Shown in pieces: positions 1,029 to 46,643 of a DNA stretch of 49,352 nt. The notes under the pieces are model-generated. The model saw only the letters and a list, made by a program, of their open reading frames with translations, searched no databases and was not told the DNA's origin. The stretch comes from Candidatus Nomurabacteria bacterium. GTDB taxonomy: Bacteria > Patescibacteriota > Minisyncoccia > Phycocordibacterales > UBA9973. Made by a program: the position numbers and the translations under genes. The first letter of the stretch is position 1. The number at the start of each line of letters is the position of its first letter. The stretch is taken from positions 1 through 49,352 of the forward strand of contig JACPLQ010000020.1 in NCBI GenBank assembly GCA_016186435.1. Reading direction: 5' to 3'.

Positions 1029-2126
1029 TTAGTGTTTTTGAAATTTAGATATATTAAGCACGATGCCAATAGCCATAAGATATATCATAAGCGAAGTCCC
1101 GCCGTGGCTCATGAACACCAGCGGCACGCCGGTCAACGGAAAGACTCCGGTAATGGAAGCTATGTGCATAAACGACTGCACTGTAATGAGTATAACAATT
1201 CCGGATACCATTAGTCCACTGAATAAATCAGGAGCTCGGTTGGCTATACGGAAGCCTCGCAAAAGAAAAAGCACGTATAAAAATATCACTGAAATCGCCC
1301 CGATAAAACCAAGTTCTTCCCCTAACACAGCGTAAATAGAATCTCCCTGCGGCTCCGGCAGGTAACTGAATTTTTGAACGCTTTGCCCGAATCCCCGGCC
1401 GAATATTCCGCCCGACCCGAGCGCGATAAGTGATTGCTGGATTTGATACGAAGATCCTCGAGCATCTTGCGCAGGATTGATAAAGGTCTGAACCCGTTCT
1501 TGCAGGTACGGATTAAAATACACCAATGCGCCTAAGACGAGAGCAAAGCCAAAGCCTACCCCAAAAATGTACTTCATCGGCACTCCCGAAACAAAAAGCA
1601 TAGATACGCCGGTAATCGCGATTAAAATAAAACTTTTGGTGTCAGGCTGTTTGAATAAAACCACGGCAATGATCGCTATCATTATTCCGAAGGGCAGGAT
1701 ACCAAATCTAAAATCCTGCACGCGATGCTTTACCCAGGACAGCCACGCCGCAAAATAAATCACAAAACCGAATTTTAAAAACTCTACCGGCTGAAATCGC
1801 ATAAAACCTAAATCTATCCAACGTGTCGCTCCGCCGTGGCTCCAACCTAAAGACGGCACAAAGACCAGAGCTGTGAGAATGATTGAGCCGAGAAAAAGGA
1901 GGAAAGAATAATTGCGCCAGAATTTATAATTTATTTTTAAGCAGACGTACATGCCGACAAGACCGAGACCGAGACCGAGCACAAGCTGGCTCCAAAGCAC
2001 GGAATAAAAAGTCTGCTGATTTTTGGCTAAAATTCCGAGTGACGCGGAAACAAAAATAGCCACGCCCACAGAAAGAAGCATAAATATTATTACCAAAAAA
2101 AATCTGTCTACTTTTTTTTCTTTCAT
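1029..2126 (-). CDS. ftsW: FtsW/RodA/SpoVE-family cell-division membrane protein
   Basis: ORF 1029-2144 is a polytopic membrane protein of the FtsW/RodA type, between mraY and murG. The TTG at 2144 lies inside a palindromic element, so the ATG at 2126 (MKEKKVDRFF) is preferred. Confidence 0.85.
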   Translation of the reverse strand: MKEKKVDRFFLVIIFMLLSVGVAIFVSASLGILAKNQQTFYSVLWSQLVLGLGLGLVGMYVCLKINYKFWRNYSFLLFLGSIILTALVFVPSLGWSHGGATRWIDLGFMRFQPVEFLKFGFVIYFAAWLSWVKHRVQDFRFGILPFGIMIAIIAVVLFKQPDTKSFILIAITGVSMLFVSGVPMKYIFGVGFGFALVLGALVYFNPYLQERVQTFINPAQDARGSSYQIQQSLIALGSGGIFGRGFGQSVQKFSYLPEPQGDSIYAVLGEELGFIGAISVIFLYVLFLLRGFRIANRAPDLFSGLMVSGIVILITVQSFMHIASITGVFPLTGVPLVFMSHGGTSLMIYLMAIGIVLNISKFQKH

Positions 2127-2173: not shown

Positions 2174-3229
2174 TCACCTGCTAATTATTGCCAAAATTAC
2201 ACCAATAATCGCAAACATGACGGATATTACCCAGAATCGCATCGTAACTTTATAAGAAGACCAGCCTATCGCTTCAAAATGGTGATGAATAGGGGCAAGT
2301 TTGAATATTCTTTTGCCTCCGCGAAATTTTTTTGAAAGCATCTGTAGAATCACTGAACCGGAACTGATAACGAGAGGCATTGCCACCACAGGAAGGACCA
2401 AAACCGAGTCAGTCAGAAACGCCATAGTGGCGAGCGTAATAGTCAGGCCCATTATTCCCGTCTCTCCCATGTAAAACCTCGCCGGTGGAATATTGAACCA
2501 CAAAAATGCGAGAGTCACGCCCATGATAACTCCGGAAAAAGCTGCAAGATCGAGCTGATTGTTAGCCAGAGCTATAATAGAGTAGGCGCCAAAGATTGAT
2601 GCCAGCACCCCTCCTGAAAGCCCGTCTATGCCGTCTATGACTCCGCCGGAAAAAGTCGCCAGCGCAACTATTACAAAAAATGGAATAACTAAAATTCCTA
2701 GATAAATTTCTCCGCCAAATGGGATATGGATAGAAGTTAATCCTAATTTATAAAAAAACCACATACCGATAAAAACTGAAACTACACCCACTAAAAATGC
2801 TTTCCATTTGCGCCAAGACGCATCATCTCGCGCGAATATGCCGTTTCCGTAAATTTGTATAAGGTCATCCCATAAACCAATCAGAGAGCCCAAGAGAAGA
2901 GTAAAAAAAGGAATTAAAGTCTGATTCCTGCTTAAAAAATTGACTTCTTCCATAGCTGGATACGGAAACAGAACCGAAGCGAAGTAAAAAACTAACGTAG
3001 TTAGGAGCGCTGAAACCCAGATGATTATTCCTCCGACACGCGGAGTTACCAGTTCTTCCGCCTCATTGTGCACGGTGTGAAATTCTTCAGCGTGAGCGTC
3101 CAGATTCCTGGAATATTTCTTCCACATTTTATATTTGTAGAAATAATGTGTGGCGAGAGGAGTGATAGCAAGGGCAATAAAAAAAGCGAAGGCTGTCGGT
3201 ATGGAAATTTTAATTAAGTTTAAAAGCAT
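2174..3229 (-). CDS. mraY: phospho-N-acetylmuramoyl-pentapeptide transferase
   Basis: 351-aa polytopic membrane protein with MraY-type motifs (GLWDDLIQ, APIHHHFE). dcw-cluster position. Confidence 0.9.
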   Translation of the reverse strand: MLLNLIKISIPTAFAFFIALAITPLATHYFYKYKMWKKYSRNLDAHAEEFHTVHNEAEELVTPRVGGIIIWVSALLTTLVFYFASVLFPYPAMEEVNFLSRNQTLIPFFTLLLGSLIGLWDDLIQIYGNGIFARDDASWRKWKAFLVGVVSVFIGMWFFYKLGLTSIHIPFGGEIYLGILVIPFFVIVALATFSGGVIDGIDGLSGGVLASIFGAYSIIALANNQLDLAAFSGVIMGVTLAFLWFNIPPARFYMGETGIMGLTITLATMAFLTDSVLVLPVVAMPLVISSGSVILQMLSKKFRGGKRIFKLAPIHHHFEAIGWSSYKVTMRFWVISVMFAIIGVILAIISR

Positions 3230-16241: not shown

Positions 16242-16538
16242 CTAATTTGCGCGAGTTTCAAATTTTTTAAACTCTCGCAAAAATTTTTTTATCGTGAGAG
16301 TTGCCTCTTTGCCGTATGCATCCCCGTCATATCCTATCAAATGCGCTTCAACTTTTTCTCCGGGACCGATTACTATTCCCGCTTTATACTCTTGATTGTC
16401 TAAAATCGCAGTCCCCGCGTATATACCCTCTTTTTCTTCACTTGGAGGCAAAACCTCCAAGTTCACCGTCGGGAATCCCAGTTTCTTGCCATACCTCTCT
16501 CCCCGCACTACTACTCCGGAAATTTTAATAGCCTTCAT
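16242..16538 (-). CDS. stand-alone riboflavin kinase domain protein
   Basis: 98 aa with the RibF C-terminal-domain pattern GVVVRGERYGKKLGFPTVNL. No FAD-synthetase domain. Confidence 0.8.
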   Translation of the reverse strand: MKAIKISGVVVRGERYGKKLGFPTVNLEVLPPSEEKEGIYAGTAILDNQEYKAGIVIGPGEKVEAHLIGYDGDAYGKEATLTIKKFLREFKKFETRAN

Positions 16539-21116: not shown

Positions 21117-21752
21117 ATGGACATTATAGACAGGCTAACCGAAGTGTTCAAAGAGTTTCCGGGAATCGGCGAACGGCAAGCAAAGCGCTTTGTATATTTT
21201 TTAATGTCCCGCAATCCTGCATATGCGGAAAATTTATCGGAACTAATTTTGGAATTAAAAAAAGAAATCGCCCAATGCAAAGAGTGCTTCAGATTTTTTA
21301 TATTGAATAAAGGAAAAGAGAAATTATGTGATATTTGCGGAAACGTGAACACCGACTCCTCTACCCTGCTGGTAGTTGAAAAAGATTCAGATTTAGAAAG
21401 CATTAGAAAAAGTAGAGTGTATAATGGGAAATATTTTATCCTTGGCGGTCTTGTGCCAATCGTAGAGAAGACTACAAAGAGCCGGGTGCGAATTGAAGAA
21501 TTGAAAAATAAAATAAGTAGCGAGGCAAGGCCTAGCTCGCTAGGCCTTGCCTCGCTGAAAGAAATTATTCTCGCATTTTCCATCAGTCCCCAGGGTGATC
21601 ACACAGATACGTACGTGCGAGCCGAACTAAAAGAAATAGTCGAAAAATCCGGCATAAAAATTTCCTCTCTAGGCAAAGGCCTCTCCACCGGCACAGAACT
21701 GGAATATTCCGATAACGACACACTCAAAAATGCCTTAAAAAATAGACAATAA
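21117..21752 (+). CDS. recR: recombination protein RecR (carries an in-frame palindromic insertion)
   Basis: HhH N-terminus (FPGIGERQAKR), C4 zinc finger (CKEC...CDIC), Toprim region. Confidence 0.9.
   Translation: MDIIDRLTEVFKEFPGIGERQAKRFVYFLMSRNPAYAENLSELILELKKEIAQCKECFRFFILNKGKEKLCDICGNVNTDSSTLLVVEKDSDLESIRKSRVYNGKYFILGGLVPIVEKTTKSRVRIEELKNKISSEARPSSLGLASLKEIILAFSISPQGDHTDTYVRAELKEIVEKSGIKISSLGKGLSTGTELEYSDNDTLKNALKNRQ
21519..21556. repeat. GC-rich palindromic element, family 1, in frame inside recR
   Basis: AGCGAGGCAAGGCCTAGC-tc-GCTAGGCCTTGCCTCGCT, encoding SEARPSSLGLASL. Confidence 0.7.
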
Positions 21753-21783
21753 AAAAACGACTAGGTCTTGCCTAGTCGTTTTT
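21751..21783. terminator. bidirectional terminator between recR and rplU
   Basis: AAAAAAACGACTAGG-tcttg-CCTAGTCGTTTTT. 9-bp stem flanked by an A-run and a T-run. Confidence 0.75.
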
Positions 21784-28301: not shown

Positions 28302-28357
28302 CCTCACCCGATCTTCGGCCACCCTCTCCCTTACTAGGGAGAGGGGCTGGGGTGAGG
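28302..28357. repeat. GC-rich nested palindromic element, family 2 (intergenic, between the two ATPase genes)
   Basis: Outer stem CCTCACCC/GGGTGAGG. Inner stem CCCTCTCCC-ttacta-GGGAGAGGG. Confidence 0.65.
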
Positions 28358-37456: not shown

Positions 37457-38467
37457 TTATTCCTTGAGATTCAATCCAAATTTATTCAACACTTTCTTAA
37501 CCTCTGTAATTCCTTTCTCGCCGATGCCTTCTACTTCAAGCAGGTCTTCCCTTTTCTTGCGGGCAAGGCCTCCAAGCGTGCGGATATTTGCTCCGGTCAA
37601 AGCGTTCAGCGTTCTAGTAGAAAGATCAAGGCTGTCTGTGCGGGTCTTTAACACATCTGCAAAATCAGCGCCCCCGCCTGCGTCGGACTGTGAAGCATTA
37701 CGGGCAGGTTTCTTTTCTTCACCTTCGTCTTCTTTTTCTTTTCCTGCTTTCTTTTCCGGCTTTACTTCTTCTTCCGGCTCTTTAAAATCAATGATGGCTT
37801 TGAGCTGATTGATCATGATTTCGATAGACTGAGAAAGAGCTTCGCGAGGAGAAAGTGTGCCGTCTGTTTCTATGGAAATTCGCAGGCGGTTGTGGTTTGT
37901 CTTGTCGCCGACGCGCATGTTTTCCACTTCGTAAGCCACTCGGCGGATGGGAGTGAATATGGCATCTACGGCAATGGTGCCGATGTCTACTTTTTCTTTC
38001 TGGAAAACTTCTTTAGGGATAAAACCGAGACCTTTTTCAATCTTCATTTCAATATTCAAATTTACCTTGCCGGTCACTTCTGCGATATGAAGCTCCGGGT
38101 TTAAGATCTCTACTTGTCCTCCCGTTTTTATATCTGAAGCCAAAACTTCTTTTGGCCCTTTTATGGAAAGATCAATAGTCTGAGACTCGTCCGATAGCAT
38201 CTTGAATCGGGCTTTCTTCAAGTTCAGTATCATAACGATGACATCCTCTTTGATGCCGTCCATAGTTTGGAATTCATGGGTTACGCCCTCTATCTTTATA
38301 GAAGTAATGCTCGCGCCCGGCAAGGACGACAAAATAATTCGCCTTAAACTATTTCCTAATGTATGGCCGTATCCGGGATATAAGCCGTCTATTTCAAATA
38401 CTCCTTTGTTGCCAACTTCTGAAACAACGCGAGGTTTTGATGGCATAATTATTTTATATTCAGGCAT
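37457..38467 (-). CDS. rpoA: DNA-directed RNA polymerase subunit alpha
   Basis: 336 aa. N-terminal domain (GHTLGNSLRRILLSS-like GHTLGNSLRRIILSSLPG) and C-terminal HhH domain (LDLSTRTLNAL). Confidence 0.95.
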   Translation of the reverse strand: MPEYKIIMPSKPRVVSEVGNKGVFEIDGLYPGYGHTLGNSLRRIILSSLPGASITSIKIEGVTHEFQTMDGIKEDVIVMILNLKKARFKMLSDESQTIDLSIKGPKEVLASDIKTGGQVEILNPELHIAEVTGKVNLNIEMKIEKGLGFIPKEVFQKEKVDIGTIAVDAIFTPIRRVAYEVENMRVGDKTNHNRLRISIETDGTLSPREALSQSIEIMINQLKAIIDFKEPEEEVKPEKKAGKEKEDEGEEKKPARNASQSDAGGGADFADVLKTRTDSLDLSTRTLNALTGANIRTLGGLARKKREDLLEVEGIGEKGITEVKKVLNKFGLNLKE

Positions 38468-40372: not shown

Positions 40373-40639
40373 TTATAATCTTTTAACGATTCTTCCTTTA
40401 CCTCCATAAGAGTCCAGTACGACCTCTACCGCATCTCCTATTAAAACTTTGATTCTGTGTAAGCGCATCTTTCCGCCCAGGTATGCGAGAATTTCTTTTT
40501 GTCCCCCTATGCTATCTTCCGTCTTATCTTGAATTTTAACTCTAAACAAAGTACTGGGAAGAGCCTCTGTGACAACTCCTCGCGCCGTTGTTAACTTTTC
40601 CTGCCTGCCTGCAGGCAGGTCTTTTTTTAGATCGCTCAT
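40373..40639 (-). CDS. infA: translation initiation factor IF-1 with extended N-terminus
   Basis: S1-like core GVVTEALPSTLFRV...GKMRLHRIKVLIGDAVEV. The N-terminal extension is encoded partly by a 16-nt palindrome. Confidence 0.9.
   Translation of the reverse strand: MSDLKKDLPAGRQEKLTTARGVVTEALPSTLFRVKIQDKTEDSIGGQKEILAYLGGKMRLHRIKVLIGDAVEVVLDSYGGKGRIVKRL
40604..40619. repeat. 16-nt perfect palindrome CCTGCCTGCAGGCAGG in the infA N-terminal extension
   Basis: Encodes part of LPAGRQE. Confidence 0.5.
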
Positions 40640-45479: not shown

Positions 45480-46643
45480 TTATACAACTACTCCCCCGCC
45501 TAAGCAAACATCTCTATCGTAAACCACGACAGACTGGCCGGATGCGACCAAAATTGGTTTATCAAAAATTATCTCTGCTCTGTTTTTTTCCAAAACTCTT
45601 ACTCGACATGGCAGAAATTCTCCGTGATATCGAATTTGAGCTCTATAATTTTTATTTTCTTTTGGAGTTTCCGAGATCCAATTTGTGTATGCTAAATTAA
45701 GAGAAAAATGCTGTAAATTTTTTGAGCGGAAGGTTCCGCCCGCAGGATGGAGTAAAGCCAAATAATTTACAGCATTTTTCTCTTGCGAAACTATTAACGT
45801 ATTTTTCTTTATATCTTTGCCGACAATGTAATAAGGGCTGTCTTTTGGGCTCTTTTTTGTAACTGTAAAACCATGCCGTTCGCCTAGCGTATGAAAAACG
45901 ACTCCGTCGTGAAATCCGATCTTTTCCCCTTTCTCATCCCCCGCTTCCTGCGGGGCAAGCATTACTTTTCCTTTTTTTTCTTTGATATAGTGTTTCAAAA
46001 ATTCTTTCAGATCCACGGCGCCGAGAAAGCAAATTCCCTGACTGTCTTTTTTCTCGGCTACTGGCAGTTTAAACTTTCTCGCTAACTTTCTTACTTCTGT
46101 TTTCCTTAAATTCCCCACTGGAAACAAAATTTTACTTAACTGTTTTTGATTTAGCGTCCACAAAAAATAACTTTGATCTTTAGAAGAGTCTTTGCCTTTT
46201 ATTAATTGGCAATTTTCTTGTCGGGTGTTGGACACCCAATTCGCGGGTGTCCAACACCCGACAATTCGTGAATAATGCCCTGTCGCCACAAAATCCGCCC
46301 CCATCGCAAGCGCTTTTTTTAGGAAGGCGCCGAATTTTACTTCTTTATTGCACATGACATCTGGGTTCGGCGTCCTACCGGCACGGTACTCCCGAATCAT
46401 GTAATCGGCAACTTCTTTTTTATAGACATCTTCGAGATCAAATGTAAGAAACGGAATATCCAAAAAAGCCGACACGCGCATGGCATCTCGGCGCTCTTCC
46501 TCTTCATTGCATTCCAGAAAGTCCGGATGCCAAGTCTTTATGAAGACTCCCACAACTTCATATCCTTCTTTCTTCAAAAGCGCGGCCGAAACGGCGCTAT
46601 CAACGCCTCCCGAAAGACCCACAAAAACAACTTTTTTCTCCAT
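45480..46643 (-). CDS. mnmA: tRNA 2-thiouridine(34) synthase MnmA (carries in-frame palindromic insertion)
   Basis: PP-loop GLSGGVDSAVSA, KDQSYFL, 387 aa. Confidence 0.92.
   Translation of the reverse strand: MEKKVVFVGLSGGVDSAVSAALLKKEGYEVVGVFIKTWHPDFLECNEEEERRDAMRVSAFLDIPFLTFDLEDVYKKEVADYMIREYRAGRTPNPDVMCNKEVKFGAFLKKALAMGADFVATGHYSRIVGCWTPANWVSNTRQENCQLIKGKDSSKDQSYFLWTLNQKQLSKILFPVGNLRKTEVRKLARKFKLPVAEKKDSQGICFLGAVDLKEFLKHYIKEKKGKVMLAPQEAGDEKGEKIGFHDGVVFHTLGERHGFTVTKKSPKDSPYYIVGKDIKKNTLIVSQEKNAVNYLALLHPAGGTFRSKNLQHFSLNLAYTNWISETPKENKNYRAQIRYHGEFLPCRVRVLEKNRAEIIFDKPILVASGQSVVVYDRDVCLGGGVVV
46220..46262. repeat. 18-bp-stem perfect palindrome in frame inside mnmA
   Basis: GTCGGGTGTTGGACACCC-aattcgc-GGGTGTCCAACACCCGAC, encoding part of VGCWTPANWVSNTR. 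Confidence 0.65.

Follow-up and report, generated by a model that had tools for sequence, protein, structure and literature searches.

How does a perfect palindrome come to lie in frame inside a gene such as recR? The question is raised by a 49,352-nt stretch of Candidatus Nomurabacteria DNA (contig JACPLQ010000020.1 of assembly GCA_016186435.1; hereafter, the window), in which a sequence-only reading had likened a 38-nt palindrome within recR to the Rickettsia palindromic elements (RPEs). The likeness is supported by the present analysis and can be sharpened. Rather than an orphan repeat, the palindrome appears to be a doublet of a hairpin of the repetitive extragenic palindromic (REP) type, with relatives that flank genes for Y1 proteins resembling the REP-associated tyrosine transposases (RAYTs). 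It is probably an element like a REP, or like a REP doublet forming a hairpin (REPIN), of a RAYT system of the Candidate Phyla Radiation (CPR), held in the RecR linker as a tolerated in-frame insertion.

A perfect palindrome in frame within recR

The host open reading frame (ORF; 21117–21752, + strand; 211 aa) matches the Pfam models RecR HhH, Toprim_4 and RecR_C as well as solved RecR structures. The palindrome occupies 21519–21556 as AGCGAGGCAAGGCCTAGC-tc-GCTAGGCCTTGCCTCGCT, i.e., two inverted hairpin units (21519–21536 and 21539–21556) around a central TC, the 18-nt arms being complementary at every position (100%) across a center of 2 nt (18+2+18). This confirms the perfect 38-nt palindrome, in frame and within recR, that had been reported from the letters alone. 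By chance, a stretch of this size would be expected to contain about 49,352 × 4^-18 (~7e-7) perfect inverted repeats of 18 bp whose short spacer has a fixed length. It is translated as SEARPSSLGLASL, residues 135–147 of RecR, directly ahead of KEIILA. The palindrome was recovered unaltered in contigs assembled independently from four groundwater runs and is therefore not an assembly artefact; at the level of contigs, no excision or center-flip variants of the element were visible in these four runs.

A second copy was confirmed in the spacer between mraY and ftsW, where the first description had placed it. This sister doublet, AAGAGGCAAGGCCTAAC-gt-GTTAGGCCTTGCCTCTT (2136–2171; perfect 17+2+17), fills the spacer, beginning 2 nt past the stop codon (2174–2176) of an MraY-type gene (2174–3229, minus strand; PF00953) and ending 9 nt ahead of the ATG (2124–2126) of ftsW (1029–2126, minus strand; PF01098). 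Within the window the 13-nt core GAGGCAAGGCCTA is confined to the recR and sister elements. With up to two mismatches it has five matches, a number reached by 0 of 100 shuffles. As RNA, the recR element folds at -36.6 kcal/mol (z = -7.7) and the sister element at -28.9 kcal/mol (z = -6.4).

The recR segment as an insertion at a variable site

By alignment, the palindromic segment is shown to be an insertion relative to most RecR orthologs and to solved RecR structures. We compared it with 120 close RecR homologs (76–89% identical over the whole protein), most of which are 203 aa long, free of the insert, and have 6 residues from KKI to KEI, against 14 (8 more) in the window. Alignment with the Thermoanaerobacter tengcongensis RecR (3VDP) likewise opens a 9-residue gap where the segment sits, so the insertion suspected earlier is borne out on both counts. 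A linker about half as long, as had been noted for E. coli RecR, is seen in both the T. tengcongensis protein and the 203-aa orthologs. The EARPxxLGLAS peptide was found in 19 of the 120 homologs, short EARP-type forms in 7 and GGPASGGK-type segments in 4. By its RecR homologs, this uncultured groundwater bacterium falls within Candidatus Nomurabacteria/Paceibacteria, in the CPR. In a tree built without the insert columns, the nearest relatives of the window RecR lack the insert and are 93% identical to it outside the insert. The doublet state needs 14 changes on the best tree, and strongly supported branches force 2 of them; because resolution of the tree is low, with strong support for 12 of its 117 branches, gains and losses are inseparable.

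The placement within the protein agrees with the anticipated surface loop. An AlphaFold2 (AF2) model of RecR, built with 75 close homologs and of low confidence (predicted local distance difference test, pLDDT, 54), shows the insert as a loop from the helix at ~126–136 to the next Toprim strand, KEIIL (149–152), in agreement with the 3VDP alignment. On these two lines of evidence, the element has the RPE trait of an in-frame insertion in a surface-exposed segment of a functional protein.

Twelve recR alleles were read as DNA. Perfect doublets occur in five of them (the window, L048, L004, L022 and L052) and a solo unit in two (L057, CCCCTGAGG-caaga-CCTCAGGGG, and L050). In L051 and L055 (the latter with TCCCCTAAGT-ccg-ACTTAGGGGA) the site holds a clear hairpin from another family, in L056 it has only a weak fold (-8.5 kcal/mol), and in two further alleles (L047 and L049) it is free of structure. 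The ‘empty’ allele of L047 has CGCGAG at the position of the left foot, GCGAGG. Wherever a recR copy was read as DNA, a perfect palindrome encoded it, and the same peptide was never found to be specified by non-palindromic sequence.

Two doublets carry small duplications at their ends. In L004 (4522–4530), a 9-nt tandem duplication (GCCTCGCTG ×2) at the right end of the recR doublet yields LASLASL, and in L052 the left end is duplicated over 15 nt (ESEARESEAR). The palindrome ends thus seem prone to slippage.

Anatomy of the unit and the doublet

Either arm alone also forms a small hairpin, GAGGC-AAG-GCCT(C/A) extended by 3–4 further pairs (the ‘feet’), and on this sequence evidence the element is therefore an inverted, REPIN-like doublet of a ~17–23-nt GC-rich hairpin unit. 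Window-type arms, GCGAGGC/GCCTAGC, retain a conserved G.A mismatch. Both window copies have the REPIN trait of two inverted units forming one long hairpin, with a spacer of 2 nt, and the alignment of 84 distinct unit instances agrees with the short (~20–40 nt), GC-rich, imperfect palindromic unit of REPs. Solo units of the form ACTTGGAGGC-(CTT/AAG)-GCCTCCAAGT occur as five copies within the 14.5 kb of L013.

The two arms are strictly symmetric. In a comparison of 8 doublets, taken from 5 sites, Watson-Crick pairing accounts for 99.3% of the pair cells; five pairs are altered on both sides, none on one side, and G.U pairs are absent. The central dinucleotide is found either way round (TC in the window, GA in L022 and L048), and the paired changes in the recR doublet are synonymous (AGG>AGA with GGC>GGT). 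Because this strict symmetry is of a DNA type and includes synonymous paired changes, it points to a constraint or process at the level of DNA, and not to selection on the peptide or on RNA pairing.

These patterns bear on two rival explanations. Under the first, EARPxxLGLAS would be a useful RecR linker kept by selection on the protein, its palindromic DNA being incidental. The peptide is indeed kept in 19 of 120 orthologs, but the same DNA also occurs in non-coding spacers, the changes that preserve the palindrome are silent in the protein, and other lineages have unrelated peptides, or none, at the recR site; we consider this explanation highly improbable.

Under the second, the palindromes would be functional signals selected in place, either as an mRNA hairpin (stabilizer, processing site, translational pause or terminator) or as a palindromic protein-binding site controlling recR and mraY-ftsW. 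In its favor, the hairpins are highly stable, the sister copy lies exactly between the mraY stop and ftsW start codons, a related hairpin forms the terminator between recR and rplU (see below), and REPs elsewhere affect mRNA stability and termination (PMC3733652). However, the element comes and goes among orthologs up to 93% identical, the same recR codons hold unrelated hairpins in other lineages, and copies are present in many unrelated genes. The absence of G.U pairs speaks against selection on RNA pairing, and the recR copy does not have the form of an intrinsic terminator, since it lies inside the ORF and is followed by GAAAGAAATT with no T-run. Selection in place is thus quite unlikely to account for the element.

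Distribution and host genes

To profile the family, the exact arm pair (GAGGCAAGGCCT-N2-20-AGGCCTTGCCTC) was used as a scan pattern. Across one genome each of 185,579 species it was found at 12 loci, 9–10 of them in CPR (Saccharibacteria, Nomura-, Campbell- and Kaiserbacteria), and metagenome contigs yielded 34 loci, for ~33 distinct loci overall. The same pattern had 0 matches in IMG/VR, which gives no indication that the family came from phages. Roughly half of the distinct loci lie within genes. In CPR, in-frame copies were detected in ligA, recG, ruvA, recR, der, bipA, purD, tgt, tpiA, atpC, and genes for a PrmC-like methyltransferase and a transketolase subunit, and other copies lie in spacers. 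The further copies expected of a dispersed repeat therefore exist beyond the window, both translated in genes of other CPR genomes and between genes.

The LigA of L008 (5036–7261), which contains EARPLSRGLAS, has other Gly/Pro-rich extra segments (e.g., KEGGGGGNSKNHHPALKGTPPPQGGEVPK). From their sequence, these look like further translated GC-rich inserts.

The most direct comparison is available in L022, which has two doublets with identical feet (AGCGAGG...CCTCGCT), one in recR and the other in the trpS/dnaB spacer. In the window, L049, L050 and L052 this spacer holds no element, and in L047 the spot is taken by a different palindrome. Overall, close variants of the 38 nt occupy sites unrelated to one another, namely spacers and ruvA. 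The recurrence of nearly the same 38 nt with unchanged feet at such sites argues for the copying of a defined element.

A separate palindrome, CCTGCCTGCCTGCAGGCAGG, occupies 40600–40619 of the window, and its relative CCTGCCTGTCGGCAGGCAGG is found in the trpS/dnaB spacer of L047 (~8494–8513).

Hairpin units beside RAYT-like genes in related genomes

The loci had been fetched by the palindrome pattern alone, and Y1 genes were then sought in them by profile search. Within the fetched loci, second copies of the 9-mer form pairs ~700–850 nt apart, with ORFs of 222–236 aa between them that match Pfam Y1_Tnp (PF01797, IS200-like; E = 1e-7 to 1e-11). A Y1 gene was present in 7 of the ~33 distinct loci (L001, L002, L003, L013, L030, L045 and L021), and in all of these except L021 hairpins lie 20–55 nt upstream of the start, span the stop codon, or are read in frame within the gene. 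The RAYT gene is usually single-copy per genome, according to the RAYT literature. Since the loci were, in addition, chosen by palindrome alone, chance adjacency is negligible by a rough estimate (~0.1 loci expected). These gene neighborhoods show that, in other CPR genomes, the family of hairpin units and RAYT-like genes are physically linked.

The RAYT-like gene of L013 (3800–4515) has a hairpin 25 nt upstream of its ATG and two more in frame (LGGLASK and LGGKASK). Among 120 homologs of this gene, the residues at both internal hairpin sites usually co-vary. In L030 (600–1460) the RAYT-like gene is in two overlapping frames, likely as the result of a frameshift, and an array of unit fragments (GGCCTCCGTAGTTA...) lies upstream.

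The RAYT-like proteins are numerous, with >4000 and >7900 homologs for two clades, and are annotated as ‘transposase’ or ‘RayT’ in CPR metagenome-assembled genomes (MAGs). The HUH histidines and the catalytic Tyr (N84-H85-x-H87 and Y145) are invariant in 105 homologs. A sequence search against the PDB gave nothing significant. An AF2 model of the RAYT-like protein (pLDDT 89.5) has as its best Foldseek match 4ER8 (E = 1.5e-6), a structure of TnpA-REP from E. coli in complex with a REP hairpin, and the ISDra2 and IS608 transposases rank behind it at ~3e-4. In the fold model, the Y1 HUH protein is thus nearer to TnpA-REP than to the TnpA of IS200/IS605, as is typical of RAYTs.

A copied element or a local product

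The window also has a solo hairpin unit, ACTTGGAGG-caaaa-CCTCCAAGT (16440–16462, - strand), which is read in frame as LEVLPPS within a riboflavin-kinase gene (16242–16538, - strand). It is identical to the RAYT-associated unit of L013 at 21 of 23 positions. The unit adds no length relative to orthologs, and its left foot consists of the conserved native codons for N-L-E-V. In the orthologous kinase gene of L047, another hairpin, CACAGGG-gaa-CCCTGTG, covers the same codons, and in that of L049 there is no hairpin there.

Such a case raises the possibility that the hairpins arise locally without any enzyme of their own, by template switching or fold-back synthesis in replication (inverted duplication, quasipalindrome correction), with the shared core reflecting mutational convergence on stable GC hairpins. 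This would fit the strictly Watson-Crick arms with no one-sided changes, the additional flank complementarity of many copies, which is specific to each locus, the reuse of the N-L-E-V codons (AAC TTG GAG GT) as the left foot of the kinase unit with no gain in length, and the CGCGAG already present at the left-foot site (GCGAGG) of the empty recR allele of L047. It is at odds with the occurrence of nearly the same 38 nt, feet included, at places that are unrelated, as in recR and the trpS/dnaB spacer of L022. It is also at odds with the identical 13-nt core in CPR lineages of phyla-level distance and with the tight physical linkage to RAYT-like genes. We therefore consider a purely local origin unlikely. 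Fold-back copying may nonetheless be the route from unit to doublet.

Proposed mechanism and points that weigh against it

If the recR palindrome belongs, in the manner of a REP or REPIN, to a RAYT system of CPR bacteria, the RAYT-type enzyme would bind the hairpin on single-stranded DNA, e.g., at replication forks, and would nick it at its foot, so that hairpin units are copied or replaced. Copies within genes would persist only where the net change preserves the reading frame (+8 codons in recR) and the site is a surface loop that tolerates it, in this case the linker before the Toprim strand KEIILA. The inserted peptide would be a passenger with no role in RecR, and the strong mRNA hairpin would simply be tolerated.

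A number of observations weigh against this reading. Profile search detected no Y1/RAYT gene in the 49-kb window, and the link to RAYTs comes from other CPR genomes. The NCBIfam RAYT equivalog is the best match of the Y1 proteins, yet they score below its cut-off (45 vs 80 bits), and the Nomurabacteria RAYT loci L053 and L054 are flanked by other, private hairpin sequences. The position table of 84 units gave no conserved tetranucleotide tag (GTAG or CGTC) outside the stem; a GTAG is found at 21517–21520, just before the recR stem of the window, and the other recR copies lack it. Copy number is low, with 2 sure copies in 49 kb, 1–2 exact copies per representative genome and 5–6 in the 14.5 kb of L013, and the family thus departs from the high copy number and predominantly extragenic location of REPs. 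The apparent conservation of the core is partly circular, as loci were picked by an exact 12-nt core. Neither a target-site duplication nor a clean empty/filled junction could be defined in the recR and trpS/dnaB comparisons. Finally, to our knowledge no RAYT has been experimentally shown to move a REP.

A miniature inverted-repeat transposable element (MITE), i.e., a non-autonomous derivative of an insertion sequence, was also considered as a candidate and was rejected, given that no direct duplication lies beside either window copy or appears in empty/filled comparisons.

The presence of several hairpin families on the same recR codons, together with the kinase loop and the trpS/dnaB spacer, hints at site-directed writing or exchange over random insertion followed by selection. 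It is conceivable, though we would put it forward only tentatively, that the recR linker, the riboflavin-kinase loop and the trpS/dnaB spacer each represent a fixed ‘slot’ that is repeatedly written by CPR RAYT-type enzymes. Hairpin cassettes would then be inserted or exchanged site-specifically, guided by microhomology between foot and target (GCGAG in recR, ACTTGGAG in the kinase gene), and the arms would be re-templated from each other. Such re-templating would explain the absent G.U pairs and the flipped centers. If true, it would mean that enzymes continually remodel surface loops in essential proteins, notably those of DNA repair, in ultra-small bacteria.

REPs are among the oldest unexplained repeats of bacteria. 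The CPR system appears to be compact and low-copy, with hairpins beside and sometimes inside the gene of the enzyme, and translated in essential proteins. Orthologous sites in empty, solo, doublet and foreign-hairpin states across relatives provide a natural before/after series for insertion rules and small, well-defined substrates for biochemistry. The elements also inflate and vary the housekeeping proteins of reduced genomes, put hairpins of -35 kcal/mol into mRNAs, and can mislead alignments and gene calls in MAGs.

Other hairpins in the window

Between recR and rplU, a bidirectional terminator hairpin, CGACTAGG-tcttg-CCTAGTCG (21758–21778), lies between an A-run and a T-run. On the other strand its loop and closing bases, AGG-CAAGA-CCT, are those of the recR solo units of L050 and L057, and this hairpin is possibly a solo member of the family recruited as a terminator. 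A match to GGCAAGGCC at 37562 was treated as a chance match with no insert; it sits in the alpha-CTD of rpoA, in ‘TLGGLA’, which we take to be native alpha-CTD sequence.

Within an mnmA-type tRNA methyltransferase gene (45480–46643, - strand), a perfect stem of 20 bp closed by a loop of 7 nt (TTGTCGGGTGTTGGACACCC...GGGTGTCCAACACCCGACAA) was found at 46218–46264, near a stretch where the MnmA-type protein exceeds the Pfam PRC-barrel model (75 vs 66 residues). This palindrome is of a different family and is apparently translated as well. An M1 aminopeptidase gene (8119–10692, + strand) holds two GC-rich perfect hairpins, CTCTCCCCCT-tcgc-AGGGGGAGAG at 8804–8827 and CAGCAAGG-actcc-CCTTGCTG at 9941–9961. 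Outside open frames of at least 150 aa, CCCTCTCCC-ttacta-GGGAGAGGG (28322–28345) fits the first two of the three TMECO/BoxC blocks.

Hairpins of the CCCTCTCCC...GGGAGAGGG type elsewhere in the window (28322–28345 and 8804–8827) could suggest that the recR element itself belongs to the BoxC/PIT/‘triplex motif’ class of repeats, which is partnered with DUF559 nucleases. The element misfits the TMECO consensus (CCCTCNCCC-N3-6-GGGNGAGGG-N3-GGGNGAGGG), however, as a third block is missing and the purine-rich arm lies on the 5' and not the 3' side, and the consensus has 0 matches in the window. The gene beside core hairpins is of the Y1/RAYT type, and no DUF559 was noticed, although no dedicated DUF559 search was made. 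There is very little chance that the element is of this class.

Comparison with known repeat systems

The closest parallels are the REPs and bacterial interspersed mosaic elements (BIMEs) of E. coli with their TnpA-REP (RAYT, YafM; ‘REPtron’, 4ER8), and the REPIN-RAYT systems of Pseudomonas (Nunvar 2010; Bertels & Rainey 2011, PMC3116915; Ton-Hoang 2012). Shared features are the short GC-rich imperfect hairpin units, inverted pairs of which fold as one long hairpin, the location of units, in other CPR genomes, around a single Y1/HUH gene, and a predicted fold of its product that is nearest to 4ER8. The CPR family differs from these systems in having no GTAG tag, a low copy number, and many copies that are intragenic and translated. 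One CPR clade has hairpins in frame inside the RAYT gene, the CPR proteins fall below the NCBIfam RAYT cut-off, and no RAYT was found in the 49-kb window. The spacer between units is just 0–6 nt in the CPR doublet, resulting in a near-perfect palindrome, and the 2 nt of the window copies are far fewer than in Pseudomonas REPINs.

The element resembles the intrastrand-triplex repeats BoxC, PIT and TMECO (Holder et al. 2015, PMC4666352) in its GC-rich hairpins with purine/pyrimidine bias. Palindromic pairs of repeats of this type are prone to small central deletions, and TMECO was reported to be always intergenic in E. coli (PMC4666352). The recR element fails the three-block consensus of TMECO, having two blocks in the opposite order.

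The likeness to RPEs lies in palindromic repeats that sit in frame in essential genes, within a genome that is reduced, and that surface loops of the proteins tolerate. RPEs were reportedly described by Ogata et al. in 2000, and we know of no dedicated transposase for them, whereas the CPR family is linked to RAYT-like genes. By description, the two are further set apart by size, with 38 nt for the element and ~100–150 bp for RPE-1, and by the phylum of the host.

Intragenic REPs of the GTAG/CGTC kind have been reported in Opitutus terrae, Thauera, Stenotrophomonas and others, with singles and dimers translated in known proteins and an over-representation in genes for DNA replication and repair, and RPE-4/6 were equated with CGTC REPs (Di Nocera et al. 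2013, PMC3733652). The elements described here are similarly translated as singles and dimers, with recR, ruvA, recG and ligA among their hosts, but they belong to a different, tagless sequence family, occur in CPR/Patescibacteria, and share one recR codon position with several unrelated hairpin families. The sequence-only reading had noted no equivalent description for this kind of genome. This stands insofar as we found no paper in the literature on REP/RAYT systems or in-frame palindromes in CPR bacteria, but not for intragenic REPs and their kinship with RPEs, which were already covered in PMC3733652. Intragenic REPs, many of them in repair genes, are thus published; the new aspects are their occurrence in CPR and a recR linker that repeatedly serves as a hairpin ‘slot’.

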